Source: Candidatus Bathyarchaeia archaeon (GTDB lineage: Archaea > Thermoproteota > Bathyarchaeia > Bathyarchaeales > Bathycorpusculaceae). Taken from it: a DNA stretch of 64,000 nt. Where the stretch lies: the NCBI GenBank assembly GCA_037481775.1, contig JBBFKZ010000003.1, positions 1-64,000 of the forward strand, given 5' to 3'. The notes under the pieces are model-generated. The model was given only the letters and a program-made list of their open reading frames with translations, was not told where the DNA came from and ran no database searches. Positions within the stretch are counted from its first letter, which is position 1, and each line of letters begins with the position of its first letter. Made by a program: the position numbers and the translations under genes. This document shows, in pieces, positions 40,025 through 63,245 of the stretch.

Positions 40025-41473
40025 TTAGGTGTTTTTCCAGAAAAGGTAACCTTTCGTCTGTAGAAGAAAACCGCATACCTTTATTAAGCGTGCAAGCCTT
40101 TCAAGGCTGGCTTTCACCGCTTCTTCTGCGTATGCTTGCTTTTTCCCGAAGGGCATGTGGCAGAAAAAGTATTTCATAAACCGTGCGTGGCAATATTTAA
40201 CAAACGCCTCTCTTATCAACTGTATCTGTTCAGGGCTTAGGCTTTGCAGCTTGCCATAAACGTATTTCTCGCTGCCTAACAATTGAATGTTGAAGCTGAG
40301 CCGCCGAAGAGTTTCAGCTATGGCTAAGGCTTCTTTTGGAGGAGGCTGCTCGGCTATTTTTCGCATTCCAGCCTTTTCCGCGAAAGGGTTGTATTTCGCC
40401 ATGACTGCTGGCATTTCCACATAGGGCGTTCCAGCAAGGGATAGAGTTTCCTTTACAAGCTTAACGCCTAAACCTATAGCGCGGTATTTTGGATGCACGA
40501 CTACACGGCTTATAGTGCTCACTTTCTCGTTTAGCTCTTTCATACCCATTTTAGGCAGAACAAGCCTTCTTCCGAAACATGTTGGTGGCGGATACGCGTA
40601 AACGATTACTCCGCAAAGCTCGTCGCCACGTTTAAGGCTGAAGATTCTGCGAGGCGCAGCTATTTTGTGGCTGCGGTAATGGAAGCCCGCCAGCCTACGC
40701 CAGTCTTCTGTTGTGCCCTGTTCTACTCGCATTTCTTTGACGAGGCTGCATTCTTTAGCCGACTGATTGGGGTAATAGCGGATATCTATTTCTTTGCCGA
40801 ATTTTTTATAGATATAAACTGAAGGGTTAAGGTCCTCAAATAAGTCAGTATGCGTTGTCGCTGCTAGAACAGCTTTGCCCTGCTGCCTCGCCAGCTTCTG
40901 AAGATTGTAAGCCACGATTTTAGCGGTGTCCCTGTCCAATGTTGCCGCAAACTCGTCCAAAATCCAAAACTGCGCTTGGTTTTCTATCATTTTGGCGATT
41001 TTATATCTGTATTTTTGTCCGTCGCTCAGCTGCTCATAACTCCTTAGGAACAGGAATGCGTCGTTCAGGCCTACTCTGCTGAGAAGCTCAAGTGCTTCCT
41101 CAAGACTTTTGCCAACAGTTTCGATTAAAGGCTTGTTTGGTTCAGGCTTGATGTCTGCTATGTTTATGCATTTTAAGCCTAAATCTTGGCGAATATCCTT
41201 CTCCAAAGCCTTGAGCAGAACGGATTTGCCTGAGCCGCTGTCGCCCGTGATGTAGACAATGTCTGTTGGCCCTATCTTCAGCTCTGCGTTGTCGTAGATT
41301 ACGAATTTTTGCCACTGGTCAAGGCCGAGGCCGAAGGCTTCAGCTACGCCTACAACTCTTTCCGTCGGTTCCAGTGCAGCGGTTTCATAGGCTATGTTTA
41401 TGGTGAATTTGCCGGTTTTGCGGTCGTATTTTCTGCTGACTTGACGTATGCGGAAAAATTCTCGGGTTTTCAA
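40025..41473 (-). CDS. ABC-type ATPase fused to GNAT acetyltransferase
   Basis: GDSGSGKS, LSDGQKYR, ILDEF, TTH; then HY and ISRVVVHPKYRAIGLG acetyl-CoA motif; no TM domain. Confidence 0.85.
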   Translation of the reverse strand: MKTREFFRIRQVSRKYDRKTGKFTINIAYETAALEPTERVVGVAEAFGLGLDQWQKFVIYDNAELKIGPTDIVYITGDSGSGKSVLLKALEKDIRQDLGLKCINIADIKPEPNKPLIETVGKSLEEALELLSRVGLNDAFLFLRSYEQLSDGQKYRYKIAKMIENQAQFWILDEFAATLDRDTAKIVAYNLQKLARQQGKAVLAATTHTDLFEDLNPSVYIYKKFGKEIDIRYYPNQSAKECSLVKEMRVEQGTTEDWRRLAGFHYRSHKIAAPRRIFSLKRGDELCGVIVYAYPPPTCFGRRLVLPKMGMKELNEKVSTISRVVVHPKYRAIGLGVKLVKETLSLAGTPYVEMPAVMAKYNPFAEKAGMRKIAEQPPPKEALAIAETLRRLSFNIQLLGSEKYVYGKLQSLSPEQIQLIREAFVKYCHARFMKYFFCHMPFGKKQAYAEEAVKASLERLARLIKVCGFLLQTKGYLFWKNT

Positions 41474-42456: not shown

Positions 42457-44559
42457 TCACGTGTTCATAATTGCCAGATCCTCTTGCAGGCTTGGAGCGT
42501 CTTCTCCAGCGATGTTTTCGTTCATGCTGTAGGCGTGTGTTTCAAGGTAGAGGCAGGTTTCGCCGATTTGTTTTCCTCCGCCATGGTTTAGGTAAACGGA
42601 TTCAACCATGCTGAATTCAAGCTGGCGCCTTTCGCTTATCAGCCAAGCCATGGGCCAACTGTTACTGTAAACCTGATCTTCACAGCGGCTCAGCTCAACA
42701 GGGTTGAAGAAAATGGCGTCTGCCACAAGCATCTGCTCATTGGCGGGTAGAAAGCCATTAGTAATATCCGTTAAAACAAAGCCGTATGGCTCTTCTTGTG
42801 GCTCTTCTGTTTCGCCTGGGCCAACAGCGGGAATGCTGTACGCAGCTTCATGATAGGCGACGAGGGCGTCTGCCAGCTTGAAGCCCCTGTCCTGGAATAG
42901 AACGGTTGTTCTAACGCTTTTAGCTGAGAAGCTCCATTCGACGCTTTTAACTTCGCCGTTGTAATTGTTTAAGCCGACTTCAGTGTTGGTTATGCTTGCG
43001 ATGCAGTAAAGGTCTATGGGCACGATGTGCGGTGTTGTAAGCGCGATTTCCTTTTTCAGCTCCTTGTATTTTTGGAGCAAGCCTTCGGCTTTGGCTTGGG
43101 TAGCCGCTTGGCTGGACAGGCTGATGTCCCGGAAGGTTTTGTCTCTTCGCCAGTAGAGGCTTTCGCTTGACGCGTCATGCGCCGTGTACTCGTAGGGCAC
43201 GCCTGAAACGGTTTTGCCCACTTGGCGCACGTAGTTTATGACTTCGTCGATTTCGCGGTTGCTTATGCTTAGCTGGTCGCTTTTGCCCTTGAACGGTAAG
43301 CTGCTTACGCTGCGGGCTTGGCTAAGCGGAATGAAATAGACGTCTTTGTTATAGTCTACGCCCCAGACGTAGGCGTTTGCGTCTGCCAGTTCCTTTATTA
43401 TTTTTGCTACGCTTACGGCGTGGTATTCTGCGCTTGTGGTTACGCCGTCTGCCACGTTGTCAGCTGTGAACACGTCTTCAAAATAGGTTTCTATGAGGTC
43501 TTTAACTATGCTGCCGCATTTTTTGTTTATGTAAATCTTGTTGTAGGCTTCTCGGAAATCCAGCCTTTTCGCGTAGCCGCTGCTGCTTTCCACTTTAAGC
43601 CTTGAAGGCGGATAAGTGCGCTCAGGCGCCTCAATATAGCCTCTGAAAAGCAGGTAAAGCACCGCTTCGGTTCCAGCCCTTATCTCAATTTCGGTTTTCA
43701 CGCCCAGCTCAGCGTATTTGTTTCCCTCGTTCCGCAGCGTCAGCGAAGCCTGAGGGTGGCTGCCGTCACGCAGCGTTACCTTGAAGTCGATTACGTCGTC
43801 GGTTATGACGCGTTTAACCGTGCCAGTTACAGCCGTGACAACTGCCTTGGCTTTGCGGGATTGGTTTCCGAAGACATAGAAGCCCCTAACGTAAAACTCG
43901 ATTGAGCCTGACGCTTGTGCCATGGCGCTTAAGCAGCAGCGCAGCGTTCCTGAGAGGCTTTGGTCGCACCAGTCGCTAACCTGCCAGACTGTCATGCCGT
44001 TTGAAGCCTGCCTGATTGTTAAGGCTATGTTGAGTTTGCGGGTGTCCGCCGTGTAAGGCGTTACTTCCATCTCGATTAGGTATTCGGTGCCTAAGCTCCA
44101 TGTAGCGTCTGAAGTATGCGTCTTAGGCGCGTAGTCTTGGCTTAAGGCCAGTTTAAACTTGTAGTCGTCTGCTGTGCCGCTGACTATGGCGACCCACATG
44201 CCGTAAATGCTTGTGCCCAAAAAGTGTCCGTCACGCACGTCAGGCGACATGAGGTAAAGGTAAAAGCCGTAGTCCGTAGGCTTTACGGCTACTCGGGTTT
44301 TGAAGGGCACTTTGAACTCGGCTCGGCTCATGAGGTTGACGCCGCCCCAGCCGTTGCTGTCCACGGCAGCAGCGAACAGGCAGCCCTCTTCAGTGGGCGT
44401 TATCACTGCGGTGGAAAACTGTACGCTTGGGTTTTCCCGAGTGTAGAACATGGACCATTTGCCCCTGTCAGGCGGGTAGTCTCCAGAGCCCGTGAACGCG
44501 TCTTTGAAGAGCAGGTTCTTGTATTTCGCCACTTTACTCGTAGCCTCCCATGTCGTCAA
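42457..44559 (-). CDS. Baseplate hub/tail tip protein with N-terminal beta-sandwich
   Basis: Second gene after tape measure; LFRGYIE, IIKELADANAYVWGVD..YF and INYV hub-like motifs. Confidence 0.6.
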   Translation of the reverse strand: MTTWEATSKVAKYKNLLFKDAFTGSGDYPPDRGKWSMFYTRENPSVQFSTAVITPTEEGCLFAAAVDSNGWGGVNLMSRAEFKVPFKTRVAVKPTDYGFYLYLMSPDVRDGHFLGTSIYGMWVAIVSGTADDYKFKLALSQDYAPKTHTSDATWSLGTEYLIEMEVTPYTADTRKLNIALTIRQASNGMTVWQVSDWCDQSLSGTLRCCLSAMAQASGSIEFYVRGFYVFGNQSRKAKAVVTAVTGTVKRVITDDVIDFKVTLRDGSHPQASLTLRNEGNKYAELGVKTEIEIRAGTEAVLYLLFRGYIEAPERTYPPSRLKVESSSGYAKRLDFREAYNKIYINKKCGSIVKDLIETYFEDVFTADNVADGVTTSAEYHAVSVAKIIKELADANAYVWGVDYNKDVYFIPLSQARSVSSLPFKGKSDQLSISNREIDEVINYVRQVGKTVSGVPYEYTAHDASSESLYWRRDKTFRDISLSSQAATQAKAEGLLQKYKELKKEIALTTPHIVPIDLYCIASITNTEVGLNNYNGEVKSVEWSFSAKSVRTTVLFQDRGFKLADALVAYHEAAYSIPAVGPGETEEPQEEPYGFVLTDITNGFLPANEQMLVADAIFFNPVELSRCEDQVYSNSWPMAWLISERRQLEFSMVESVYLNHGGGKQIGETCLYLETHAYSMNENIAGEDAPSLQEDLAIMNT

Positions 44560-45343
44560 CTGCGAAAAAGTAGCTCCGCGCCTGATTCTTGGTGATGGCG
44601 AATTTGATTTTGCTCAGCTGGCTCCAGTCAACCGCGTCGTAGTCTGCGAATTGGGTTTTGTGGATGCGGATTCTACGCCACTCATCAGCCGCAGCCAACT
44701 CAGCTATAAAATCATAATAAGCTTCGTTCTCGCCTTCTTGGACGGTTACAACCGCGCTGCTGATGGCTGCGACATCGTTTATCAGGAAGGCGAAGCTTAT
44801 CCAGTCAAAGTCTTCAAGGTTGAATGTGTCCACAGGCTCATAAGCCACGTTTAATTCTTCGTCTGCTTCGGCGTCGTGGCTGACTTTAAGGCAGCCTCTA
44901 CCCTCGAAAGGCAATGGCTGGCTTTCGGCTATAGTTACAGACGCGCCTTCCGTGGCGGTGAACCAGCTTGTTATGGCGTCGCATGCGTTAACCTGTTTGA
45001 ACATGCTTTCTTTTAGCGTGAGGCTGTAGCGGAGAAAGTTGAAGCCTGTTTTGGCGAGTTTTACTTCTCGTATGAAAACTACTGTTTGCGCCACGTCACA
45101 GTCCATTTTTAGGCTTTGTCCAAGCTGGCAGACGCGTTGTAGCTGTCTGAAATCGTTGAATCTTGAAGGCCCTGTCAGAACTCCTGAAAGCTGTATTTCT
45201 GTTGCGTGTTCGCCGAGGTCTTGGGTGCTGCTGCCTCTTGCAGCTGGCAAATCCACGTCTTCAAACCGTTTAGAGTTGGAAAAGTTGAAGTCGGCTACTA
45301 TGCCAAGGTTTAGGTTGCCAAGCGTTACAGTCAAAGCTTTCAC
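44534..45343 (-). CDS. Distal tail (Dit/GpU-like) protein with carbohydrate-binding-like domain
   Basis: Follows tape measure; QDLG...IQLSG motif; C-terminal WRRIRI...F...VDWSQL...VDD domain. Confidence 0.55.
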   Translation of the reverse strand: MKALTVTLGNLNLGIVADFNFSNSKRFEDVDLPAARGSSTQDLGEHATEIQLSGVLTGPSRFNDFRQLQRVCQLGQSLKMDCDVAQTVVFIREVKLAKTGFNFLRYSLTLKESMFKQVNACDAITSWFTATEGASVTIAESQPLPFEGRGCLKVSHDAEADEELNVAYEPVDTFNLEDFDWISFAFLINDVAAISSAVVTVQEGENEAYYDFIAELAAADEWRRIRIHKTQFADYDAVDWSQLSKIKFAITKNQARSYFFAVDDMGGYE

Positions 45344-47025
45344 CTTGCCACAAAGAACGTTTGCGCCCGCAAGTCGCGTCGGACAATTGCGCTTAGCTCG
45401 TTGTAAACTGCCTCTGCGAACTCGCGTGGGTCCTGCGGCGCTATGCTGCCTTCTGGAAAGTTGAATGTGGGCGCTAAAACAAGTGTTTGGCTGCCTGCAG
45501 GTGTGGATCCAACTGCTGCTGGGTTTGGGCCTAAAGCTGGAGCCTTTAATTCTGCTCCGAAGCTTTTAATGGTGCCATAAGCGGTGTTCATGGCTTCTTC
45601 CACGGCGTCGTTGAAAACTGAGAGGCTTTTCCTGCTGGATTCCACTGCGTTTCCAATTGCATGAGCGAAACACACTTTGCCGATGAAGCTGCTTATGCTG
45701 TTCCAGGCATCGCTCATGGCGCCGCCGACGTTGCTTGCGAAATTGTTTAGGGCGTTTCCAGCAGAGTTTACAGCATTTCCAACTGCGCTTGCTATTCCGC
45801 CTGCAGCGTTCTTGATAGTGTTGACTGCTCCGCTGACGGTGTTGACTATGCTGTTCCAGATTTTTCCAGCTGTGTCAGCTAAACCTGAAAAGAAGCCGCC
45901 TATGGTGTTGCAGAAGTCTTTCACCGTGCCTATAAGCGGAGCCACAACCGTGTTCCAAACGCTTACTATGCCCTTGCAAAGGTCTGTCCAGACGCTTCCG
46001 CCGACCAGCCATCCGAACAGGGCTTTGAAGGCGCCGTAAACCGTGTCGCAGAACCATTTAACCGCGTCTACTATTGGCTTGATGAAGGTATTCCAAGCCC
46101 AGCTTACGCCGCTGCATATAGCGTTCCAAACGTCGCCCAACGCCTTAGTGACGTCGCTCCAGTGTTGAATTAGATAGGCTATTGTTGTTATGGGGCCGAA
46201 AAGCGCCGCCAATATAGGGTTGCTCGTGATAGTGTCCCAGAGGGTTTTCAAGACGCCTATGAAAGGCTGCACAACGTTTTGCCAAAGCCAAGTTAAAGCG
46301 CCTACTACAGCGTCAATTGCTGGCTTAAAAAAGTTGTAAATTGCTTGCCCAATAGCGTTTATCGCGTTGCGGAAGGGCTCGCAAGTCTGGTATGCGGTTA
46401 TTAGGGCTCCAACGACAAGACCAATAGCCATAACCACAGCCATCAACGGGTTTGCCGCCAAAAACGCTGTAGCCGAGTTAACAAGGTTTACGGCGCCATG
46501 AAAGTTTTGGAAAACCTTTACTCCACTGTCAACCATTGTTATAACGGTTGGAATGACGGTTAAGGCGCTTTGCACCATAGCCTCGTTCAGGTTTCCCTGA
46601 ATCATGCTGGCGCGTTCAACCGCCACCTGATACCTTTCTTGGGCGACTGTGAGGTCTGCTGCTGCAGCCCGTGCCTGTTCGCTGTCGACGCCATATTTTT
46701 CTACGGCAGCGTTATACCGGCGTTGAGCATCTTCCAAAGCGTTTAGGCTTGTTTTAACTTGCAGGTTTGCCCTGTCAACGCTGACTTGCATGTCGGCTAC
46801 GCGGTCGTAAGCGTTGTAGAGGGCGAAGGCGCCTGTGGCTAATCCGCTGAAGCCTGTTACGAGGCTTCTGACGCTTGCGTTGGTTTTTTCCTGTTCCGCT
46901 GTTACAGTCTTGTTTGCCTCTTCCACTTGCCTCATGCTTTCGGTTATCTGTTTGCCAGCTTCCGCTACGGTTTTGCTTGCCTCATCTGTGGCTCGCAATA
47001 CAACGTTTACGTTTATTTCGCTCAT
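45340..47025 (-). CDS. Tail tape measure protein
   Basis: INVVLRATDEAS N-terminus, ANP, Trp/Phe-spaced amphipathic repeats; follows the chaperone. Confidence 0.9.
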   Translation of the reverse strand: MSEINVNVVLRATDEASKTVAEAGKQITESMRQVEEANKTVTAEQEKTNASVRSLVTGFSGLATGAFALYNAYDRVADMQVSVDRANLQVKTSLNALEDAQRRYNAAVEKYGVDSEQARAAAADLTVAQERYQVAVERASMIQGNLNEAMVQSALTVIPTVITMVDSGVKVFQNFHGAVNLVNSATAFLAANPLMAVVMAIGLVVGALITAYQTCEPFRNAINAIGQAIYNFFKPAIDAVVGALTWLWQNVVQPFIGVLKTLWDTITSNPILAALFGPITTIAYLIQHWSDVTKALGDVWNAICSGVSWAWNTFIKPIVDAVKWFCDTVYGAFKALFGWLVGGSVWTDLCKGIVSVWNTVVAPLIGTVKDFCNTIGGFFSGLADTAGKIWNSIVNTVSGAVNTIKNAAGGIASAVGNAVNSAGNALNNFASNVGGAMSDAWNSISSFIGKVCFAHAIGNAVESSRKSLSVFNDAVEEAMNTAYGTIKSFGAELKAPALGPNPAAVGSTPAGSQTLVLAPTFNFPEGSIAPQDPREFAEAVYNELSAIVRRDLRAQTFFVAR

Positions 47026-47194
47026 TCACTTTTGCCTCTTGCCCATTCCAGCCAAGCAGCCAAGAAGCCTATTTGGAAAGGCGTTAAACCTGCGATGTAT
47101 TCAAGCGGGTAGCCGTATTCATGGGCTATCAAGCCAATGAGTTGGGCTTCACTGTTGGCGTCGATCCATTCTATGGCGGAGTCTGCTGTTGGGC
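47022..47194 (-). CDS. gpT-like extension of the tail assembly chaperone, reached by -1 frameshift
   Basis: The -1 frame after T TTT TTA (47195-47201) reads SPTADSAIEW...IAHEYGYPLEYIAGLTPFQIGFL...KSE*, with its stop overlapping the tape measure ATG. Confidence 0.8.
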
Positions 47195-47551
47195 TAAAAA
47201 ACGCGGAAACACCTGTGACAGGCGAGTGGCAAGTATGGCTTTTACGTGGAAAGGTAAAGCTTCAAATTCTTCCCAGGAAAGGTCTGGCTCTGCTTTCCGC
47301 AGCATGGCATGGATTACGCGGTAAAACTTCTCCTCATTGTCTTCAACGGTTTCAAGATTTAAGGCTTTAAACTCTTTCCACGTTAAGAGCCCATACCTGA
47401 TCTCGCCAAGCTCCTGGTCGTATATTGTGTGGATTTTGCGTGTGTCTTCAGCCAATGCTTTAGGATCGAAACGCTTCGCTTTCTCTGCCTTTTCCGCTTC
47501 GTAGGCTTCAAGCTGCCGCCTGTACTCGGCGATTTTGCCCTGTTCAGCCAA
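47171..47551 (-). CDS. Tail assembly chaperone (gpG-like)
   Basis: Between tail tube and tape measure; slippery heptamer near the 3' end. Confidence 0.8.
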   Translation of the reverse strand: MAEQGKIAEYRRQLEAYEAEKAEKAKRFDPKALAEDTRKIHTIYDQELGEIRYGLLTWKEFKALNLETVEDNEEKFYRVIHAMLRKAEPDLSWEEFEALPFHVKAILATRLSQVFPRFLAQQQTPP

Positions 47552-47574
47552 AGCTAACCAGCCCCCTTTTCTGG

Positions 47575-47979
47575 CTATCCTTGTTCTTCTATGGTTTCGA
47601 GCAGCAGGTCGTCGCCTTCGCCTTCCATGCTCTGCATAACTACGCCTGTAGGCTTCTGGTCAAGCTTCCACTTGGTGAAAATCACGTTTTTCACTGTTAT
47701 CTTCGGGTTTCCAGCAACATCGCCAGCAGGGTCCAGCTCAATGTCCACAGGGCTTCCAGCTTTAACGGTTTCCGCGTAAGCGTTGTCCACGTACATGGCT
47801 TCAATGCTGACCTTGTAGCTTTGGTTTCCAATAGCCAAAAACGCGGGTTTCTCGCTGTTTAACGCGTATTCCTTGATCAAGTCTATGTCAATGTTTATGC
47901 CTACGCCTTTAGCGTAGCCAATTTCCGTTTCGCCTTTCTTAACTACGCCTTTTCTGCCCAACACCGGCGTTGAACTCAA
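47575..47979 (-). CDS. Major tail tube protein
   Basis: 134-aa beta-rich protein in the canonical position; no sheath gene nearby. Confidence 0.7.
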   Translation of the reverse strand: MSSTPVLGRKGVVKKGETEIGYAKGVGINIDIDLIKEYALNSEKPAFLAIGNQSYKVSIEAMYVDNAYAETVKAGSPVDIELDPAGDVAGNPKITVKNVIFTKWKLDQKPTGVVMQSMEGEGDDLLLETIEEQG

Positions 47980-48056
47980 TTTTCCATCTTCACCCCATCT
48001 CTATTTTCGGTTTACAGCACGCCCTCAGCCGAGAAGCGTGTCTGCCCGAAAAGCTT

Positions 48057-48488
48057 CTAAGCCTTAACCGTCACCTCGCAGCGGAGCACAAGCCTTGCTG
48101 CGGCTATTACCTGCGAGACTTTGCCCCAGTCTGTGCCAACCGTCATGGTTTCACCTTCCATGCTTGCCGCTTGGCTGCCGCGGACTAAGCCGCCGAGCGT
48201 TGGGTCCTCAGCTAAAACTTGTTTGGCTCTTTCAATCTTGTCCATGACGCTTTGCAAGGCTACGTTGTCTTCTTGCGCAGTGTCGACTATGATTATGCTC
48301 CAAGTGTGTTGCCAAACCTCGTTGGCGAAGGTTTCCTGCTGCACTGGTCCGCCGTTCCAAACTGCATAGCAGAAAGGCGTCTGGTTTCGCGTGTAAGGCG
48401 GGCCGAAAAAGAAGTTGGCTTCTGGAATGCCCAATTCATTGTCAGCCTTTAAGAGGTTGAGGATTTTCTGGGTGATTTCCTTCAGCAC
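48057..48488 (-). CDS. Tail terminator/completion protein
   Basis: Position after the gp10-like gene; L..DPTLGGLV motif. Confidence 0.7.
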   Translation of the reverse strand: MLKEITQKILNLLKADNELGIPEANFFFGPPYTRNQTPFCYAVWNGGPVQQETFANEVWQHTWSIIIVDTAQEDNVALQSVMDKIERAKQVLAEDPTLGGLVRGSQAASMEGETMTVGTDWGKVSQVIAAARLVLRCEVTVKA

Positions 48489-48491
48489 TTT

Positions 48492-48695
48492 TCAATGCCT
48501 CTTGGATTTTTGTATCATTTCCATGATGGCTATGCGGTTGCGCACAGCCGTGTTAATATCGTCCAAAACGATTTCCTGCATCCACAAGGGCATACGCAAA
48601 ATCCTTGTACCAAGCTGCTCCCACATGCGCATCCATTTTTGGCGCAATGCAGACTCTCTGCCCCAACCTTCTAAAACTGTGACTTCAGCCATCAA
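48492..48695 (-). CDS. Small hypothetical viral protein
   Basis: Start overlaps the upstream stop; fills the operon gap. Confidence 0.55.
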   Translation of the reverse strand: MMAEVTVLEGWGRESALRQKWMRMWEQLGTRILRMPLWMQEIVLDDINTAVRNRIAIMEMIQKSKRH

Positions 48696-49141
48696 ACTTC
48701 ACCGTAGAAAAGTTGACAGTAAAGATTCAACACCAGCTCCTGAAGCTTTGGCAAACATTCTTCACTTGTGCTTTTAACGAAAAATCTTCCTGGAAAGCCT
48801 GGATGTTGCACTCTTTTGGCGAAGACTGCTTGTCCATCTATCTCGAAGGCTAAAATCGAAGCTTGGACAGGCTCGATGATGTGGGGTCTTGTGCCAAACT
48901 CAACGTAAGGTGCATAGGGGGCTGTGGAACCAACTTCGACAGTGTCTCCGCTTTTGTGGATTATTATGCTATCGCGTAGATAGCCTGTGCGGATTGGAGC
49001 TTTCATGCGCATGGTTTCAGCTATTAGGCTGCTGCTTCTGTCCAAAAACTCGTCAAACACTTTGGGCGCTTCACGTTTCACTCGCTCAACCCATTTTTGG
49101 AAGGGGTCCATGTCAAAGTCAACTTCAACCGAAACGGGCAT
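48692..49141 (-). CDS. HK97 gp10-like neck/tail-completion protein
   Basis: APIRTGYLRDSI, YAPYVEFGTRPH, HPG..GRFF motifs. Confidence 0.88.
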   Translation of the reverse strand: MPVSVEVDFDMDPFQKWVERVKREAPKVFDEFLDRSSSLIAETMRMKAPIRTGYLRDSIIIHKSGDTVEVGSTAPYAPYVEFGTRPHIIEPVQASILAFEIDGQAVFAKRVQHPGFPGRFFVKSTSEECLPKLQELVLNLYCQLFYGEV

Positions 49142-50795: not shown

Positions 50796-51236
50796 ATGGC
50801 GAGAGGAAAACCTTGGACTGAAGAGGAGATTGCGGTTTTGGACGAGCTTGCCAGTCAAGGCTTGTCTCCTCAGCAAATTTATGAAAGTGGAAGGCTTCCG
50901 GAAAGAACCGTTGACGCTATAAGGAAACAGCTTAAACTTTGCTCTATAGTTCAAACTAAGCACACGGCAATAGTTCAAACTATTGAGCCAGCAGAAGACG
51001 CTTTAAGCATGGAAATGGTTGTCAAGCTTTTCAGCACAGCTTTTAAGCAAATCTGCGAACTGCAACAGGTTGACAAACTCACGCTTGAAAGGTTTCGCAT
51101 AATTTTCCAAGCCGCCAAGGACTATGGGCCTCTTCTGAGCAGCTTTCAAAAGTGGGAGGAAATTGAAAAGCGTGTGGAAGAGCTTGCTGCTGCTGTTGCG
51201 GAATTACAGGCAGCGAAGAGCGCTAAGAAAGCTTGA
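50796..51236 (+). CDS. Putative terminase small subunit
   Basis: N-terminal WTEEE...RT.DAIR Myb/HTH-like motif and coiled-coil tail, directly upstream of TerL. Confidence 0.6.
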   Translation: MARGKPWTEEEIAVLDELASQGLSPQQIYESGRLPERTVDAIRKQLKLCSIVQTKHTAIVQTIEPAEDALSMEMVVKLFSTAFKQICELQQVDKLTLERFRIIFQAAKDYGPLLSSFQKWEEIEKRVEELAAAVAELQAAKSAKKA

Positions 51237-52554
51237 GGAAACCGAGCACGCTGTTAGGCGAATGCTAAGGGAAGAAGAGGTTGAAGTAAAGGACGCCGTA
51301 GATTTTGCAGTTAAAGTTTTAGGCATAACGCCTTTCGACTATCAGGCACGGCTTTTGTTGGACGATAATAAGCGCATTGTCGCGTGCATGGGAAGGCAGA
51401 CAGGCAAAACCACGACGATAGCCATGAAAGCCATATACTTCGCAGACACAAACCCAAATGTTACTGTTCTGATTACAAGCCCAAGTCTACGCCAAAGCAT
51501 GATAATGTTCGACCGCATAGCCACATTCGTCTATTCCACACCACGCTTAAGAAACAAGATTGTAAGGGCTACAAGAACGCTGATTCATCTTGAAAATGGC
51601 AGCCGCATAATAGCTTTGCCATGCAGCGAAAACCTGTTGAGAGGATATACGGCGCAGATGGTTATTTGTGATGAAGCCTCATTCATGCCTGAAGAGGTTA
51701 TAACGCAAGTGATTTTTCCGATGTTGAGCACAACGGACGGCTACGCCATTTTTCTAAGCACGCCTTGGGGTAAGGACCATTTCTTTTACAGAGCCTTTGT
51801 CAATCCAGCCTACAGCGTGCATAAAGTAAAGTCTGAACAATGCCCATTGATTAAGCCCGAGTTTCTCGAGGAGATGAAAGCCAATATGACTAAAGAAGCC
51901 TACTTGATGGAGTATGAAGCAGAGTTTGTCGAAGCCCTGAACAGCTATTTCCCACAAGATTTAATCCGAAAATGTGTTGAATTAGCCCAAAAATTAGGCG
52001 TTGAGCTTTACGGAAGCCTTGAAGCAACCTTTCCAACAGGAGACTATTATGCCGGAGTGGATTTCGGCAAGCTGCAAGATTATAGCGTTATCACAGTTTT
52101 GAAGCGTGAAGGCGACATCCTCAAACTTGTTTATCTTTACCAGTTTCCACTCGAAACACCGTACACGCAAGTTATAGGACATTTAGTAAGAGCCCATCAG
52201 AAATTCAAATTTAGGAAAGCGCTCGTGGATCAAACAGGCGTAGGCGAGCCTGTTCTCGATGAAATCCGCAACCAAGGCTTAAACAATGTTGAAGGACTAA
52301 AGTTTACGGTTCAAACAAAAGAGGAGCTGCTATCGAATTTGAAGATTGCTATGGAGCAGAATCGCTTGGCGATACCGTATCATAGGCAACTGTGCACGCA
52401 AATAAACGAGCAACAATACGCATACAGCAAAAGCGGACACCTACAATTCAGCCACCCAATAAACAGCCATGACGACATGCTATGGTCATTAGCCTTAAGC
52501 ACTTATGCGTCAAGAGAACCGCCAAGAAAAGAACCAACCTTCACTTTCGGGTAA
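51163..52554 (+). CDS. terL: Terminase large subunit
   Basis: GRQTGKTT, LRG, ICDEA, LSTP.G, GVDFG, VDQTGVG, HDD; the true start is probably somewhat downstream. Confidence 0.95.
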   Translation: MKSVWKSLLLLLRNYRQRRALRKLEETEHAVRRMLREEEVEVKDAVDFAVKVLGITPFDYQARLLLDDNKRIVACMGRQTGKTTTIAMKAIYFADTNPNVTVLITSPSLRQSMIMFDRIATFVYSTPRLRNKIVRATRTLIHLENGSRIIALPCSENLLRGYTAQMVICDEASFMPEEVITQVIFPMLSTTDGYAIFLSTPWGKDHFFYRAFVNPAYSVHKVKSEQCPLIKPEFLEEMKANMTKEAYLMEYEAEFVEALNSYFPQDLIRKCVELAQKLGVELYGSLEATFPTGDYYAGVDFGKLQDYSVITVLKREGDILKLVYLYQFPLETPYTQVIGHLVRAHQKFKFRKALVDQTGVGEPVLDEIRNQGLNNVEGLKFTVQTKEELLSNLKIAMEQNRLAIPYHRQLCTQINEQQYAYSKSGHLQFSHPINSHDDMLWSLALSTYASREPPRKEPTFTFG

Positions 52555-55958: not shown

Positions 55959-56843
55959 CTACGTTATGCCTGTGATTTCGCATATGGCTGTTGGTCTCTT
56001 AATGCGGGGAACCACGGCTTCGTAGACCCGAAAGTGGTGGTTCATGTCGACGGTTTGCATATAGAAGGTTTTTAGGTCTTGGGCTACGCACAGGTCTGCG
56101 TTTTCCGCTCCGCTTTTGATTAGTATTGCGCTGTCTGTTCCGCCGTCAGCCGCCTTAAGCTGGCTGCTTATGTAGATGTTGCCTTGAATAAGCTCCTTGA
56201 TTTTCTCGATTTGGCTTATGCCCGTATTCGCTATAAGCGTGTGAGCATCCATGAAGGCGCTTGGCTGCACAATCAAATCGTAAGGAGGCGGATAATACTT
56301 GTCAAGCAGTTTTTTGGCTGCCGCCCGTACATCGTTTAATGCGTTCGGAGCTGTTGCCCATGCGCCGCCGCTTGCCTGCGTCTGCCTTCCCGTGGCGGTT
56401 GTTAATCCTTCTATGCCAAGCATGGGTTCGCCAGAGATTTCGCCGTTAAGGATTAGGCGATCTTCTTTCTGAGCCACAACGAGGGCTGCTGATTCCGCGT
56501 TTGCCGTGTCCAATGGTGTTCCAAACCGCCTTGAAGCTTCCAAGTCTCGCCAGTGTATGCGGAAGTCTTTGTGCAGTATTGGCACTGTGAGGCTTTTGCG
56601 TGTGTAGATTATTGTGTCTTCTGCTGGCGTTTCGCCGTACATGCTGATGTGCGCTGCGCTCATTTCTGATAGCTCGTCCCAATCCACGGTCATGACGCCT
56701 ACGCCTGCAAGCTGTTTAACTGGCAAGACACGACGTCCAACCAAGACTGGCTGAGCAGCTCTGACCACAGCCTCGTCAAGCTGTTTCCACTCCTCTTCAC
56801 GCAATGGTGCCTGTGCTCTTCCAACAAGCGTTAACGGGTCCAT
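55959..56843 (-). CDS. Major capsid protein of family 1 encapsulin (Linocin M18/EncA) type
   Basis: APLREEEW, LVGRR, PILHKDF.IHWRDLEA, PLD..A..AA..VAQKED.LI..G, MNH.FRV.EA...RIK.P.AIC; only capsid candidate in the cluster. Confidence 0.9.
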   Translation of the reverse strand: MDPLTLVGRAQAPLREEEWKQLDEAVVRAAQPVLVGRRVLPVKQLAGVGVMTVDWDELSEMSAAHISMYGETPAEDTIIYTRKSLTVPILHKDFRIHWRDLEASRRFGTPLDTANAESAALVVAQKEDRLILNGEISGEPMLGIEGLTTATGRQTQASGGAWATAPNALNDVRAAAKKLLDKYYPPPYDLIVQPSAFMDAHTLIANTGISQIEKIKELIQGNIYISSQLKAADGGTDSAILIKSGAENADLCVAQDLKTFYMQTVDMNHHFRVYEAVVPRIKRPTAICEITGIT

Positions 56844-56845
56844 TT

Positions 56846-57355
56846 CTAAATCACCAACCTAACCATAATCGACTTGTCAGCAGCAGAGGCATCAACACTT
56901 TCCTCTGCGTAGGCTACGATTGGTCCGTAAGGCGGGATGCTGCCGATTTCCAAGAGGTCTGGCTGAGCAGCGGTAGACGTTACTTGCGTGGCTCCTGAAG
57001 GGACGCTTACGGATATTGTAGCTGCAGCCTTCAATTTTCCGTTTGCAGCACAAACCAGCGATGCACCTTTAACAACGTTGTTTCCGCTTGCCAAAGTGGC
57101 TACCACAACCGCAGGCGCCTTCAACACACGAACTGGATGCTTATCTGGAAAGGCATTTGCAATCGGATATCTTGGGTCTGCGTCCAGAATGCCTAAGGGC
57201 TTTTGTTCTCCGTCGCCTGCAAGCGTTACTTGATGGTCGGCTGTGCCTTTCTTAACGAACAGTCCTGGCTTGCATGATGTGCCTTCGGTTATTAGCTCTT
57301 CAACGATGGGTGAGCCGCCAACCAAAATCTTGTTAGAAGGTTTAACGAACGGCAT
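56846..57355 (-). CDS. Capsid decoration/cement-like protein
   Basis: Directly upstream of the capsid gene; beta-clip-like (VVKGASLV...NG.L...IVAYA.E). Confidence 0.65.
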   Translation of the reverse strand: MPFVKPSNKILVGGSPIVEELITEGTSCKPGLFVKKGTADHQVTLAGDGEQKPLGILDADPRYPIANAFPDKHPVRVLKAPAVVVATLASGNNVVKGASLVCAANGKLKAAATISVSVPSGATQVTSTAAQPDLLEIGSIPPYGPIVAYAEESVDASAADKSIMVRLVI

Positions 57356-57362
57356 GGCTCAC

Positions 57363-57713
57363 TCACTGCTCCTTCTTGTGGTATAAGCAGCCAACCGTCA
57401 GCCTGTTTTCATCTTCGCTTGTGGTTGCCCCAGCACTGCGAACATTTTTCACCGTGCCTTTAACGCTGTCAACGCCTTTCTGGACGAGCCTAAGCTGTGC
57501 AAGATCCAGCTTCTCAAGTTCATCCTTTGAAAGAATAGTCTTCTCTAAAATGGATTTGATTGCAGCTTCCCTTTCCTTTTCAACATAAGCAGTCAATGTT
57601 TTGGTGGCTTCAGTCATCGTTGTCTTGAGCTTCTCGTTCTCAGCCTCAAGCTCCGCAATCCTCGCCTTTAACGTTTCAACGGTTTCTGTTGGCTTTTCTT
57701 CACTCATATTCAT
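57363..57713 (-). CDS. Coiled-coil scaffold protein with C-terminal encapsulin cargo-loading-like peptide
   Basis: LKARIAELEAENEKLK coiled coil, low-complexity linker, then LTVGCL (57384-57401). Confidence 0.75.
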   Translation of the reverse strand: MNMSEEKPTETVETLKARIAELEAENEKLKTTMTEATKTLTAYVEKEREAAIKSILEKTILSKDELEKLDLAQLRLVQKGVDSVKGTVKNVRSAGATTSEDENRLTVGCLYHKKEQ

Positions 57714-58119: not shown

Positions 58120-58566
58120 ATGGCTGAAAAAGTTTCTTTAGATTCGGATGAAGTGTTTGAGGCTATCTCGCACCCTTTAAGGATAAAAATATTGAAAGCG
58201 CTCGCTAAGACACCACTCGGTTTTAGTGAGCTCAAGCGGGCAATTAATGTTGAAAGTAGTGGCGCCTTAGATTTTCATCTCAAAAAGATGCAAAGTCTGA
58301 TTGAAACAGACTCAGCTGGTCGATACATTTTAAACGCTAAAGGATCTGCTGCACTGGAAGCCATACGCGTCATCCAGCAATATGGGTGGCAAAGGCGCTC
58401 TTTTTTATTGAACGTTCTCGCTTATGTGCTTGTCAACATCTGGACGCTAATTAACTTCTCTTTAAGCTTAAATTCCATCATCGTGTTTGTCGGATCAACA
58501 CTTTGGATGGCATTCTATTCTTATTGGACGTTTATCTACAGGCGGGTTTCTTTAAGACAAAAGTAA
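58120..58566 (+). CDS. ArsR-type wHTH protein with C-terminal TM helices
   Basis: FEAISHPLRIKIL...FSELK...SSG.LDFHLKK followed by two TMs. Confidence 0.8.
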   Translation: MAEKVSLDSDEVFEAISHPLRIKILKALAKTPLGFSELKRAINVESSGALDFHLKKMQSLIETDSAGRYILNAKGSAALEAIRVIQQYGWQRRSFLLNVLAYVLVNIWTLINFSLSLNSIIVFVGSTLWMAFYSYWTFIYRRVSLRQK

Positions 58567-58595: not shown

Positions 58596-59819
58596 TTAGG
58601 TTGTTCCCTTTAATTGGCTGACAAGAGCGCTCACGTTTGCTATTAGGCTGTCTGCTGATTCGTAGCCTTCAAGCTGCTTTTTGATGTTTTCTGGTAGGGC
58701 TTTGGCTTCTGGCAGTTCTGGGTTATAGCGAACTGTTATGCCATGTTGGAGTGCACGTTTTACTATGCGTTCGTAGATTGTGTTGCGTTCTGGTTGTGTG
58801 TATTCTTGTCTAAATTGGCTCCAGCGGGCTAAGGCGTTTCTGCATCGGTCTTCTGGCACAAGCGGATAAGCGTAATTCACGGGGTCAGCGTAGTCTTCTT
58901 CATTCTGTGGATAATCTTTCGGCGGAGTTAGATGTCCTTTGTCTTCTCGGAATTTTATGCCGTGCTTCTTTTCTCGCTCTTCTGCAGCCTTACGCAGTTT
59001 TTCTCTTTCGCTCTCTTCTTGCTTCTTCTCGGCTGTGTCGCCTTCTTCTCTTGTTGCTGGTTCAAAGTTTCCGCCGTGGTCTTGGCAGTGTTTGCGGGCT
59101 TCAGCTTCACTCCATGTTTTAACTGGATAGCGGTAGGCTTGCTCAACCGAGCCAGCTTCAAGCTTGTCCTTCGGTTTGCCAAAAATGACGCGGTAGCTTT
59201 TGCCGTTGTGTTCTCGTTCGCCGCTGCCCACTATGTTTAGTTTTTCCGGGTCTTTTAGGCGACAGCTGTGCTCGTTTGGGTAAGGGTCTGCGCCCTTAAG
59301 CGTGTCCACGCCTATTCCACAGAGCGGGTAGCTGCATCTTCCCTGCCAGCTTCCAACAGCCACATGGTCGATGAGAATATCTTTTTTCACATATTCGTAG
59401 TGTTGCCCGTTCCACTCGCCCTGTTGTGGAATGCACTCAAAGAAGAAGCCTATGCTCACGCTTCTCGCTTTGCCAGTTTTAATGTCTTCAAGGTATTGGG
59501 GGCTGCAGCGGTTTTTGAAGAAAGCCAACTCAGCTTTTATGCGGTCCTTCTCGAATTTGGCGTTGCGCACTGTCCCGCGGATAAGCCCGGGCTTAGAAAG
59601 GATTATTTCTGGCGGGTGCTCCTCAACAACCCAAGCGTTCAAAGCTGTGAAAGCTGCCTTCTCAACTTCTTCTGCAGGTTCGTAGATGAGCATGCCATCA
59701 TAATCGTAAACGCCTTCGCGGGTGATCACCGCTGGCACGGTAAGCGTTTCCGCGTCTTCTCTGATTTGGAGGCTGTCGGCTTCAACGCTTTTCACGCCGT
59801 ACTTCAGCATGGCAGTCAC
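58596..59819 (-). CDS. Prohead protease (DUF2213-like) with C-terminal extra domains
   Basis: REGVYDY, HP, VSIGF, GEW.G..Y, DHVAV...GRC; then PYPNEHSCRL and YADPVNYAYPL modules. Confidence 0.8.
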   Translation of the reverse strand: MTAMLKYGVKSVEADSLQIREDAETLTVPAVITREGVYDYDGMLIYEPAEEVEKAAFTALNAWVVEEHPPEIILSKPGLIRGTVRNAKFEKDRIKAELAFFKNRCSPQYLEDIKTGKARSVSIGFFFECIPQQGEWNGQHYEYVKKDILIDHVAVGSWQGRCSYPLCGIGVDTLKGADPYPNEHSCRLKDPEKLNIVGSGEREHNGKSYRVIFGKPKDKLEAGSVEQAYRYPVKTWSEAEARKHCQDHGGNFEPATREEGDTAEKKQEESEREKLRKAAEEREKKHGIKFREDKGHLTPPKDYPQNEEDYADPVNYAYPLVPEDRCRNALARWSQFRQEYTQPERNTIYERIVKRALQHGITVRYNPELPEAKALPENIKKQLEGYESADSLIANVSALVSQLKGTT

Positions 59820-60591: not shown

Positions 60592-62034
60592 TTACCGTTT
60601 TAATCCATATTCTTCAATCCAACTGTAAAAAGTTTGCTTGCCAATACCCAACTCTTTGCATATTGTGTTTACGCTTTTGCCTGTTGCTATTCTGTCTGCT
60701 AATAGTTTGTCTACGGGTTTTCCGAATTTGCGTTCTAACTCCAGTTTCCGCTTTGATGTTGCGGAGCTGATGTTTTGAGGGGTTCCGTTTTGGAGTTGGC
60801 TTAAGCCTAAGACTACGTCGGCGCCTGGAAGTCGCTCTAAACCTTCATGTTGTCTTATCTCGTTGATTGTCATCCAGTTTGTTTTTAGCGTTAGGCTGCG
60901 GGTTTTGTCGAGTTCTGCGGCTGCTTGATCCCTTGGGTTTATTTCGAATCCGCCAAGCCAGTTAATGCGGTAATGCGTGTCTGAGATTTGTTTTGTTTTT
61001 ATTAGGCGGTCGATTAGGTCCATGATGTATGGTTCGTAGCGGCTTTGGCAGTCGCTTATCTGCTTGAAGTATTCGCGTTCGTTTACTTCGCTTCCAGCTA
61101 ATTGTCCGGCTTGTGCTCCGCGTAGAATCGCCATTGGTATGCTTGTGCCTGCGCTTATGTTTTCCATTATGGGCGTGTAGTAGGGTTCTGGGTCTAAGGC
61201 TCTTCCAGCTAAGCCTTTAAACTCGATTGTGGTGTTTTCGTCTGCCCACATGCTCGTCTGAGCCGTTAACGGGCCCCATTGACGCTTGTACGCTTCGATT
61301 TCTTCTCGCGTTGCGCCTTTGACAGTTACAACAGGGAAGCCGCTGCCATAACGGTACATAGTTTGCCCCATACCCCAACGAATATTCCGCAAAACAGTTA
61401 GGTCATCCCAGACGGGTTCGAGAACGCTTATGCCTTTCCATGGATGGTCTAAGAGGCGAGTGGCGAAATGGATGACACGGCTAAAGTGAACCTCAACCTC
61501 TTCATTCTCAGCTATTTTTATCTTGTAAGTTTCTGGCAAGCCAAAGCGTGCACTCTGCCTATTCTTGTCTGTTTGAACGCTTGTTATCATTGTTGGTGCG
61601 TAGGCTTCGAGGCTCACGATTTTCTCAGGCACTAAGACTGGGTCTCTTAATGTGACACCTTTATCCTGATAGCCTAAGACGATTATGCTCCAGCCATAAG
61701 CCCGTTCAAAAACCGCCGCCTGCGTGAAAACGTCTTTAGCGTTAAGCAGAAGCAAGACTTTCTGAACAGCCTCGTTAAACTTTTCCTTGTCAACGCCTTC
61801 CTCAAGAGGCTCAACATTAAACCAGTTGTCAAAAACGTCGTGAGCCACGGCGAAGACGATGCGGTGTGCTACAGGCTCGCGTTTAATTGCAAAAGTGATA
61901 TTGTCATTGGTTAGGGGTTGACCGAACTCGGCGCCTAAACCTGTGTAAACACGCTGAATTTCAGCTTGTGCCTGAGAAGGCGCAGAGTGTATTCCAAAGA
62001 GTTTCTGGGCTAAAAGCTGCCTAACACTAACCAT
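60592..62034 (-). CDS. Portal protein (DUF1073-like) with C-terminal HTH
   Basis: RAYGWSII, RFGLPETY, VHFSRVIHF, G.SVLE, IPMAILRG.Q.G, MTINEIR...GL; ATG at 62034. Confidence 0.88.
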   Translation of the reverse strand: MVSVRQLLAQKLFGIHSAPSQAQAEIQRVYTGLGAEFGQPLTNDNITFAIKREPVAHRIVFAVAHDVFDNWFNVEPLEEGVDKEKFNEAVQKVLLLLNAKDVFTQAAVFERAYGWSIIVLGYQDKGVTLRDPVLVPEKIVSLEAYAPTMITSVQTDKNRQSARFGLPETYKIKIAENEEVEVHFSRVIHFATRLLDHPWKGISVLEPVWDDLTVLRNIRWGMGQTMYRYGSGFPVVTVKGATREEIEAYKRQWGPLTAQTSMWADENTTIEFKGLAGRALDPEPYYTPIMENISAGTSIPMAILRGAQAGQLAGSEVNEREYFKQISDCQSRYEPYIMDLIDRLIKTKQISDTHYRINWLGGFEINPRDQAAAELDKTRSLTLKTNWMTINEIRQHEGLERLPGADVVLGLSQLQNGTPQNISSATSKRKLELERKFGKPVDKLLADRIATGKSVNTICKELGIGKQTFYSWIEEYGLKR

Positions 62035-62173
62035 AGTGCTTTTCAGCCTCCGCTTTGGTTTCACGCAAAACTTGACGGATTACGTCTTGCATGCTTCGAG
62101 CCTTCCGCCTTTTCAGTTCTTTCAAGAGCCACTCGTAAAGCTCAGAATCAACGCTCTGCTGGAAAATAGGCAC
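62027..62173 (-). CDS. 48-aa ribbon-helix-helix regulator (absent from the ORF track)
   Basis: MPIFQQSVDSELYEWLLKELKRRKARSMQDVIRQVLRE...; overlaps the portal start. Confidence 0.65.
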   Translation of the reverse strand: MPIFQQSVDSELYEWLLKELKRRKARSMQDVIRQVLRETKAEAEKHYG

Positions 62174-62366: not shown

Positions 62367-63245
62367 TTATTGTGATGTTGGAGCTTTCACCATCTTTCTC
62401 AAGAAATTGTAGCTCACAGCATTTGCATGTTTCCAGACGACATCAAAAAGCGTTTCGATTTCCTTGACCAGCTTCCCCTTGGCGACAAATCCCAGTTCAA
62501 AGTTGTTATATAAAGAGTTTAGTCTAAATTCCGCTGAACCTACATAACACTTGATTCCATCCACAAGAACTAGTTTTGCATGAGTCGATTCATAATGCAT
62601 AAGTTGAGAATCGCCCAAGCGCAAATTCTCGTGAAAGTCCTTCACTGCAAAATAGCCAGAATTCCCGAAAGCACGATATATATCCCACATCCTTAAAACG
62701 GATTTTATGAGACTCATGTAGTGATAGTCTTTTTTCTGAGGGTCTAACACTTCTCGGGTCAGCAAAAAAACCTTAACTCCTGCTTTAGCTAATCTTTTCA
62801 ATTCCATAGAAAAATGAGTCACAATAGACTCTTCAGGAAAAGGCAGTGAAACTTTAACATATTCGCGAGCAGAGTTTAATAGATGATCAAACGCTATATC
62901 TGTCATAATGATCCTTTCATTTGTTGGAAGATCAGATAAAAGCGATGCAGGAATTGTAGCCACAATTTGTATGTCATCTAACGATTTTGTTTCATAGCTG
63001 AAATATATTCGATCTTTTAATATCGCTTTTTTGCTTCTTATTATTGGTTTTCTCAGTATAACAACATAATCCCGATTTTCTTTTTTGAGCTCGAGATTTT
63101 GAGAGCGAACAAGTGCCATTACCTTGAGTTCTGCAAGCGGTTGTTCTTCAACAGGGAACATCGAGAGAAGAGATCCAAGGTGTAGCTTGCCATTATTTTC
63201 CTTAAGTGTTTGAATTATCTTTGTTGCCATGCTCACGTTTACCAA
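62367..63245 (-). CDS. Phospholipase D-family nuclease (DrmC-like)
   Basis: Single HAKLVLVD...GSA...N.ELG HKD motif. Confidence 0.82.
   Translation of the reverse strand: MVNVSMATKIIQTLKENNGKLHLGSLLSMFPVEEQPLAELKVMALVRSQNLELKKENRDYVVILRKPIIRSKKAILKDRIYFSYETKSLDDIQIVATIPASLLSDLPTNERIIMTDIAFDHLLNSAREYVKVSLPFPEESIVTHFSMELKRLAKAGVKVFLLTREVLDPQKKDYHYMSLIKSVLRMWDIYRAFGNSGYFAVKDFHENLRLGDSQLMHYESTHAKLVLVDGIKCYVGSAEFRLNSLYNNFELGFVAKGKLVKEIETLFDVVWKHANAVSYNFLRKMVKAPTSQ

Follow-up and report, generated by a model that had tools for sequence, protein, structure and literature searches.

An encapsulin-type LTVGxL tail on a putative scaffolding protein of a Bathyarchaeia provirus

The window analyzed here is the first 64 kb of a 145,825-bp contig from a 1.82-Mb, 96.7% complete genome of a Bathyarchaeia archaeon, and it contains an integrated head-tailed provirus. 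Between the prohead protease gene of this provirus and the genes for its cement protein and major capsid protein (MCP) lies an open reading frame (ORF) for a 116-residue protein, the scaffolding-protein candidate, whose C-terminus (rendered as ENRLTVGCLYHKKEQ, RSAGATTSEDENRLTVGCLYHKKEQ or KGTVKNVRSAGATTSEDENRLTVGCLYHKKEQ) carries the motif LTVGCL. The motif occupies residues 105-110 (nt 57384-57401) and stands six residues before the stop; translation confirmed both the ORF and its terminal motif, to which an initial annotation of the window had pointed. The core of the motif matches the published targeting peptides of the encapsulin cargo proteins EncC and Q. thermotolerans IMEF. From these comparisons we consider it probable that the protein is the scaffold of the provirus and that its LTVGxL tail docks in a groove homologous to the encapsulin cargo site. 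Among the roles considered for the tail, such docking is the most likely.

In the mechanism that we propose, the charged, helical N-terminal part of the protein would probably self-associate, and the LTVGxL core would dock on the inner face of each MCP, in a groove formed by the N-terminal helix together with the P-domain. The same groove in the shells of Myxococcus xanthus EncA and of Q. thermotolerans binds the (L/F)TVGSL cargo peptide. Docking would recruit coat subunits into the procapsid, and the scaffold would subsequently be cleared by the DUF2213 protease and by DNA packaging, either before packaging or while it proceeds. Because the MCP lacks a delta domain and can be aligned with EncA over its entire length, it would need a separate scaffold.

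A conserved C-terminal tail that matches encapsulin targeting peptides

The targeting peptide of M. xanthus EncC is PEKRLTVGSLRR, with the stretch EKRLTVGSLR (bioRxiv 10.1101/2023.07.26.550694), and the native M. xanthus T3 peptide is PLTVGSLRRGG (PMC7925596); both agree with the LTVGSL(RR) motif that the initial annotation had given for Myxococcus. Q. thermotolerans IMEF has the tail HKKKGFTVGSLIQ and the targeting peptide FTVGSLIQ, of which TVGSLIQ was modelled in the shell groove, and a cargo construct minus 13 residues of the IMEF tail was made as a peptide-less control (PMC6668986).

The motif is strongly conserved in homologous scaffolds, a check that had been proposed for it from the outset. 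In a set of 114 close homologs (50-96% identical), 110 proteins contain LT[VI]G.L and 112 contain the core; the two that do not are fragments of 68 and 75 residues. More distant relatives were collected by scans with an MCP alignment, which gave 46 viral-contig loci, with MCPs 36-98% identical to that of the window, and a further 32 loci from species-representative genomes. The gene order protease, small helical protein, cement, MCP recurs in related loci, and the small scaffold-position proteins of all clades have an N-terminal helical architecture in common, at 25-34% identity across clades. The pattern T[VI]G.[LMI] is found within the last 35 residues of 44 of 52 scaffold-position proteins, the window protein included, in tails such as LTVGCLYHK, LTVGDLS.., LTVGSLYGK, MTVGSLFGK, TTVGDLYGK, WTVGDLT and LTIGDMS. 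Across 35 non-redundant scaffolds, LTVGCL is the most conserved six-residue window of the protein (0.83), with T106 kept in 97%, G108 in 94%, V107 in 85%, L110 in 80% and L105 in 74%.

The nearest bacterial shells have cargo with the same kind of tail. These shells came from the genome scan, and in Effusibacillus and Marinithermofilum the gene directly upstream of the shell encodes an IMEF_Flp cargo; the C-termini of these cargo proteins are RKRLTVGSLVQY, KKLTVGSLIGY, RRFTVGNMINRSSTL and SPWSVGNLRFKGE. Seven cargo proteins of the Effusibacillus type end in L[TS]VGS[LM]; in the six cargo homologs of that type beyond those at the shell loci, the ending is LTVGSL (four), LTVGSM (one) or LSVGSL (one). 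When the scaffold alignment was compared with the IMEF cargo using hhalign, the tails only were aligned (KNVRSAGATTSEDENRLTVGCLYH with ESFRSAG-----RDKKLTVGSLIG; P 0.005, probability only 7%), and a homology of the scaffold body to the IMEF cargo body was rejected on that account. A Pfam search found no enzyme or ferritin-like family in the scaffold candidate, as opposed to the IMEF_Flp domain in the bacterial shell neighbors. Shells of the Hydrogenobacter/Aquificota group (L066-L069) are preceded by a gene for a 347-367-residue FAD-dependent oxidoreductase-like protein without a TVGSL-type tail, and these loci may have a different cargo or loading arrangement.

A shared core of only five to six residues, together with the 7% hhalign probability for the tails, could be taken as convergence or chance with no functional meaning. 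The distribution of the motif speaks against this. No other segment of the protein is as conserved across clades, and of 1198 other ORFs of at least 80 residues in 51 related loci, 1197 lack the motif when the last 35 residues are searched for T[VI]G.[LMI]; the single ORF that has it is unrelated. In six-frame translation, the 64-kb window contains LT[VI]GxL a single time. The relaxed pattern [LMF]T[VI]G.[LM] occurs five times in frames of at least 60 residues in the 1.82-Mb genome (3.64 M codons), and the scaffold-candidate copy is the only one that lies within 50 residues of a stop; a pattern search near C-termini in the same genome found no other targeting-peptide-bearing protein that the capsid could load. 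The motif also has the same place in viruses and bacteria: C-terminal, after a linker, and encoded upstream of homologous shells. The LTVGxL tail is thus a real feature, far beyond chance, and a meaningless resemblance is highly improbable and close to refuted by the conservation data.

Upstream of the motif, the alignment of homologs contains a second conserved block, KGTVKNVRSAG, in which K85, G86, V88, K89, R92 and A94 are each at least 90% conserved. Distant viral clades have NSVRFG, YKNIRAG or YKSIRAG at this position, and in the hhalign comparison the block is paired with ESFRSAG in the tail of an Effusibacillus IMEF cargo. The block, KGTVKN[VI]RSAG in its general form, sits 9-10 residues ahead of the LTVG motif, and five of the seven Effusibacillus IMEF cargo tails have [RQ]S[AT]G 3-4 residues before LTVGSL. 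The tail common to viral scaffold and IMEF cargo may therefore be bipartite, consisting of the second block and LTVG; alternatively, the KNVRSAG block may be a protease site. Residues 95-104, between the two conserved elements, are variable, rich in G, S, T, D and E and interrupted by indels in the alignment, in agreement with the flexible linker described in the initial annotation. Most homologs begin at residue 3 of the window protein (MSEE..., 113-114 residues), and the real start of the scaffold candidate is on this basis probably the ATG at 57707, which would give 114 residues.

The capsid protein and its putative peptide groove

The MCP is a member of the Linocin_M18 family and the sole gene of that family in the 1.82-Mb genome. 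It matches PF04454 over profile positions 4-252 of 253 (E 2.1e-51, 175 bits) and the major head protein family phrog_264 (E 7.7e-22). Its best match among PDB chains is M. xanthus EncA (E 1.3e-59, 204.6 bits), with residues 7-292 aligned to 5-280 at approximately 38% identity (110/286, counted on the HMMER mid-line). Two other encapsulins follow in the ranking and then 6NJ8 (E 2.4e-47), the thermotolerans T=4 shell (PMC13669383); T. maritima 3DKT is not among the PDB matches listed for the MCP. The nearest solved shells of the MCP are those whose cargo peptides are of the (L/F)TVGSL type.

In two respects the pair resembles a Family 1 encapsulin system. The MCP is a Linocin_M18 protein with an N-terminal helix whose alignment begins at EncA residue 5, and a gene two upstream of it encodes a protein with a C-terminal targeting-type peptide (RLTVGCLYHK). 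The initial annotation went further and read the motif as independent support for calling the shell an encapsulin. This does not hold: with portal, DUF2213 protease, cement, terminase, Neck1, tape measure and tail genes around it, the shell gene is part of a provirus, and its product is a Linocin_M18-family viral major capsid protein and not an encapsulin. In a quick maximum-likelihood tree of 68 shells, one supported branch (98) divides 49 virus-context shells from nine bacterial shells; the window clade is on the viral side and nearest to the midpoint root, which need not be the true one.

Similar proteins have been named otherwise. The shell encoded on JBHIEV010000006.1 (locus L053, protein P0167) is 74% identical to the MCP and bears the NCBI name "family 1 encapsulin nanocompartment shell protein", and scaffold and cement genes lie directly upstream of it. 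Aguilar et al. (2026; PMC13669383) mention an archaeal encapsulin from Bathyarchaeota. What databases list as Bathyarchaeia "encapsulins" may be capsid genes of proviruses, and shells of this lineage annotated as Family 1 encapsulins call for caution in this respect.

The polar contacts of EncA with the targeting peptide are R28, R34, D38, D213 and D243 (bioRxiv 10.1101/2023.07.26.550694). The numbering of that study equals the PDB-chain index minus 1, an offset that fits all six residues named there (N105 included). In our alignment, EncA R34 corresponds to MCP R37 and D243 to D256, and no viral clade examined has lost either residue. At least 80% of viral and of bacterial shells have D256, and five of the seven bacterial shells shown have R37. 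EncA R28 is replaced by Q31 in the window MCP and is R or K in most viral clades. The overall pattern would be coherent with a conserved contact to the hydrophobic core of the peptide and a diverged periphery.

Provirus context and competing readings

Several results weigh against the proposed docking and scaffolding roles, and we consider them here together with the readings that they favor. The first concern the tail. The core pattern is missing from eight of the 52 scaffold-position proteins: four have near-variants (LTVGDK twice, LTIGST, SPLGDL), two have LTVP[NG]KFRFG and come from the two most divergent loci, and the remaining two are shortened genes in decayed proviruses. A further 21 distant representatives have the core motif in only five cases, the others being fragments, sequences with frameshifts, divergent proteins (TFTLSDLY, TTIPPLY) or unrelated coiled coils. 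In the window motif, the second Leu is followed by YHK and not by RR.

On the capsid side, three of the five EncA polar contacts are lost in the window MCP (R28 to Q31, D38 to P41, D213 to G221), and D38 and D213 are acidic residues of the patch by which EncA holds the peptide's terminal arginines. Viral and bacterial shells have 32 conserved columns in common, of which a single one falls within residues 1-45 and which cluster at 76-135 and 256-285; this indicates that the N-terminal helix is not especially conserved family-wide; the idea that it is the best-conserved part of the shell was rejected for the same reason. Co-variation between the post-motif residue (Y/F or S/T) and MCP columns 13, 40, 43, 75, 77, 131 and 261 looked suggestive, with the LYGKK clade (L022, L023 and L029) agreeing in its MCP states with the other Y-tail clades. 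The tree provides one independent pair on supported branches, or two on all branches, so few that this analysis has no power. The link between encapsulin cargo loading and viral scaffolding drawn in the initial annotation is partly supported: it is favored by the conservation of the motif in homologous scaffolds, by the closeness of the shell to (L/F)TVGSL-type encapsulins and by the LTVGSL ends of the IMEF cargo beside the nearest bacterial shells, and is weakened by the three lost contacts. The role in portal incorporation that the initial annotation had added finds no support in these results.

The lost contacts could also mean that the encapsulin-like tail has another partner: the maturation protease, which would recognize or cut the scaffold there, or else the portal or cement protein. 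In phages that have a protease, cleavage of the scaffold is common, and at least one of the two conserved blocks, KNVRSAG and LTVGCLYHK, is without an assigned role. Yet the same core is carried by bacterial encapsulin cargo that has no protease, portal or cement gene nearby, where it is experimentally a shell-binding peptide, and the groove residues R37 and D256 are conserved. We regard a protease site or a portal or cement contact as distinctly unlikely.

Other results bear on the scaffold role itself, which is assigned from position, size and sub-threshold hidden Markov model matches. The window protein scores 15.5 bits against Pfam Phage_scaffold (PF06810; cut-off 35) and E 0.023 against the head scaffolding family phrog_2932, and thus falls outside the curated scaffold families of Pfam and PHROG; two homologs (P0063 and P0070) have a precomputed PF06810 match. 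Residues 1-75 contain 17 D and E and 13 K and R, and sub-threshold matches to Pfam TSC22, bZIP, ZapB, GrpE and SIKE fall at residues 4-72. These matches make the coiled coil of the initial annotation plausible, but the heptad signal is weak, with hydrophobic residues at 11 of 20 a/d positions in the best register. Finally, the 407-residue protease extends for approximately 240 residues beyond its DUF2213 domain, and this long C-terminal extension could itself act as a scaffold. Halorubrum phage Hardycor1 and the Brevundimonas phages have a 494-568-residue DUF2213 protein directly before a cement-like gene and the MCP, and have no small scaffold gene.

The long protease and the low Phage_scaffold score would suit a protein that docks in the capsid by its tail as an internal "cargo" of the virion or procapsid, with the protease extension doing the scaffolding. 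This is unlikely in view of the gene's position and its persistence. A small helical protein encoded after portal and protease and directly upstream of the coat genes stands in the classic place of a viral scaffold, and it is kept there in 50 of 52 loci, the other two having shortened copies. The absence of a delta domain from the MCP is a further point for a dedicated scaffold, and the ESM Atlas clusters nearest to the window protein are viral, some with Mu-like_Pro, and include Mu gpI-type clusters, although this is a lead only. We therefore retain the scaffolding role, with the tail docked in the groove, as the probable one.

Three observations on related loci are recorded here. One Bathyarchaeota contig from a metagenome-assembled genome, CAVQNT010000006.1, carries two decayed proviruses of this family (L058 and L061), with split portal and protease frames and with shortened scaffold genes that have lost the motif. 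In Hardycor1 (L080; MT152698.1, 2406-3890), a cultivated haloarchaeal virus whose MCP is 27% identical to that of the window, the order is the 494-residue DUF2213 protein, a 145-residue gene product and the MCP; the DUF2213 protein ends in TDAVGALSTLTEREQAGD, resembling the ..TVGDLSVVT.. tails, which in a single sequence is a lead only. The C-termini of the prohead proteases are conserved as well, as ..ADSLIAKV..L[VI].QL in the window clade (58596-58650 (-)) and as ..E[IL]ERSR.LL.. in distant clades, and may be a separate capsid-targeting signal.

The genes around the scaffold candidate are those of a Caudoviricetes-like provirus (Table 1): an HK97-type MCP, portal, large terminase, maturation protease and tail genes, with host flanks. 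The host genes for enolase and a DEAD-box helicase lie to the left of the tail module on the same contig. The presence of viral head and tail genes and host genes on one contig identifies the locus as a head-tailed provirus integrated in a Bathyarchaeia genome; the homologs, too, are labelled Bathyarchaeia or Bathyarchaeota by their sources.

Table 1. Location of the scaffold candidate, its segments and the other provirus features in the 64-kb window
Feature	Position	Strand	Length	Basis or remark
Scaffolding-protein candidate	57363..57713	-	116 aa	ORF and translation; pI 5.6; between protease and cement and MCP genes
Charged helical, leucine-zipper-like N-terminal region, residues 8-75	57489..57692	-		presumed oligomerization part
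Second conserved block KGTVKNVRSAG, residues 85-95	57429..57461	-		alignment of homologs
Variable linker GATTSEDENR, residues 95-104	57402..57431	-		variable in sequence and length within and across clades
Putative docking motif RLTVGCLYHK, residues 104-113	57375..57404	-		conservation and peptide match
Cement/decoration protein	56846..57355	-	169 aa	Pfam Phage_cement PF22758, E 3.1e-9, 37.5 bits
Major capsid protein	55959..56843	-	294 aa	Linocin_M18 family, PF04454, phrog_264; no N-terminal delta domain
MCP residues 13-40, PLREEEWKQLDEAVVRAAQPVLVGRRVL	56724..56807	-		contains R37; aligned with the N-terminal helix of EncA, which contributes to the targeting-peptide site
MCP D256	56076..56078	-		aligned to EncA D243, a published peptide contact
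Prohead protease, long C-terminal extension	58596..59819	-	407 aa	DUF2213 E 3.4e-13; phrog_530 E 1.2e-13
Portal protein	60592..62064	-	490 aa	Phage_portal_3 E 1.2e-33; phrog_146 E 2.5e-41
Large terminase subunit	51163..52554	+		Terminase_6N, Terminase_6C; phrog_2 E 2.1e-47
Neck and tail module	42457..49141	-		PHROG matches and DNA_circ_N
Neck1	48692-49141	-		neck and tail module
Minor tail protein	47575-47979	-		neck and tail module
Tape measure	45340-47025	-		neck and tail module
Tail proteins	44534-45343 and 42457-44559	-		neck and tail module

The scaffold candidate is the first gene of its capsid operon, as the initial annotation had it: its upstream neighbor (58120-58566) has the opposite orientation, and downstream come the cement gene, at a distance of 7 nt, and then the MCP gene, 2 nt further on. 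In related loci, too, the cement gene sits between scaffold and MCP. The opposite-strand gene, which encodes 148 residues with a winged-helix-regulator-like N-terminus and a hydrophobic C-terminal half and has no PHROG match, divides the head module into two transcription units. An ORF for an 80-residue membrane-like protein lies between portal and protease on the same strand as both. The neck and tail module matches phrog_5 (E 2.6e-20), phrog_58 (E 1.7e-30) and phrog_1887 (E 8.5e-10), and more weakly phrog_290 and phrog_9983.

The C-terminal residues ~446-488 of the portal (60592-60740 (-)) form a helix-turn-helix resembling that of small terminases (HTH_23/HTH_29; phrog_4102 E 8.5e-4). The window yielded no separate small-terminase gene; a 146-residue ORF before the large terminase (50796-51236) gave weak matches only. 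No tRNA gene is present in the 64 kb. The viral genes are flanked by a gene for a PLD-like nuclease-family protein (62367-63245 (-); PLDc_2, E 6.7e-11) and one for an ABC-ATPase/GNAT fusion (40025-41473 (-)), which may mark the borders of the provirus or be defense genes.

Comparison with encapsulins and viral scaffolds

The relatedness of encapsulins and HK97-fold viruses is accepted, and the argument for it has so far drawn on the shell fold and a loose likeness of cargo and scaffold. Our results suggest a single docking mechanism, of a single origin, for the loading of cargo and the scaffolding of viral capsids. If this is true, a docking peptide shared at the sequence level would for the first time connect cargo loading with procapsid scaffolding through a concrete mechanism. 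How, and in which direction, the virus-encapsulin transition took place would become open to direct test, and nanocompartment engineering would be offered new orthogonal peptide-shell pairs.

As to direction, we tentatively put forward the possibility that the TVGSL-type peptide and its groove were inherited directly from a viral scaffold-capsid docking pair, from which encapsulins arose. The ancestral virus would already have had a bipartite scaffold tail (..RSxG, linker, LTVGxL). In EncA- and IMEF-type encapsulins this tail would have moved onto ferritin-like enzymes, and the shell would have lost portal, protease and terminase. Were this so, scaffold tails and cargo peptides should still be cross-compatible, and the "Bathyarchaeota encapsulins" of databases would be provirus capsid genes.

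The literature searched in full text yielded no description of an encapsulin targeting peptide on a viral scaffold, and the use of such a peptide as a coat-docking tail would be new within that literature. The closest work is that of Aguilar et al. (Nat Commun 2026; PMC13669383), who treat cargo and viral scaffolds as interchangeable internal partners of HK97-fold shells and group Family 1 encapsulins with some viral MCPs. Their argument differs from ours in that it proceeds from the likeness of helical hairpins at 4-18% identity; a shared docking motif is not reported in the text, and the term "targeting peptide" does not occur in the main text. The word "scaffold" likewise does not occur in Andreas & Giessen (2021).

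Among the known systems closest to the window pair are the Family 1 encapsulins of the TVGSL type (EncB/C/D, IMEF). Viral and encapsulin tails have in common a C-terminal (L/F)TVG[S/C/D/N]L core after a flexible linker, the gene that bears the peptide lies upstream of a Linocin_M18-family shell, and the window shell matches the solved structures at E 1e-47 to 1e-59. The systems differ in the carrier, which in the window is non-enzymatic, helical and part of a tailed provirus that also encodes portal, protease, terminase and tail proteins, and in the residues after the motif, which are YHK or S-x-x-T in viral tails and RR or I-x-Y in encapsulin cargo.

The scaffold candidate also resembles DUF7539 (PF24383), a Pfam family without an assigned function that is not mentioned in any paper of the literature searched. 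Profile positions 5-84 of 128 match residues 33-113 of the window protein, the motif included, and several of the 114 homologs bear a precomputed PF24383 match. The window copy is a near miss, at 24.9 bits (E 2.7e-5) against a gathering cut-off of 27.

P22 gp8, phi29 gp7 and 80alpha gp46 are scaffolds that bind coat protein through their C-termini. Like them, the window protein is small and helical, is encoded just before the coat gene, and has an N-terminal part presumed to oligomerize and a C-terminus presumed to bind coat protein. It shows no significant sequence similarity to these scaffolds, as the Phage_scaffold score indicates, and the element by which it presumably binds coat protein is not a helix-turn-helix but an encapsulin-type peptide, short and extended.

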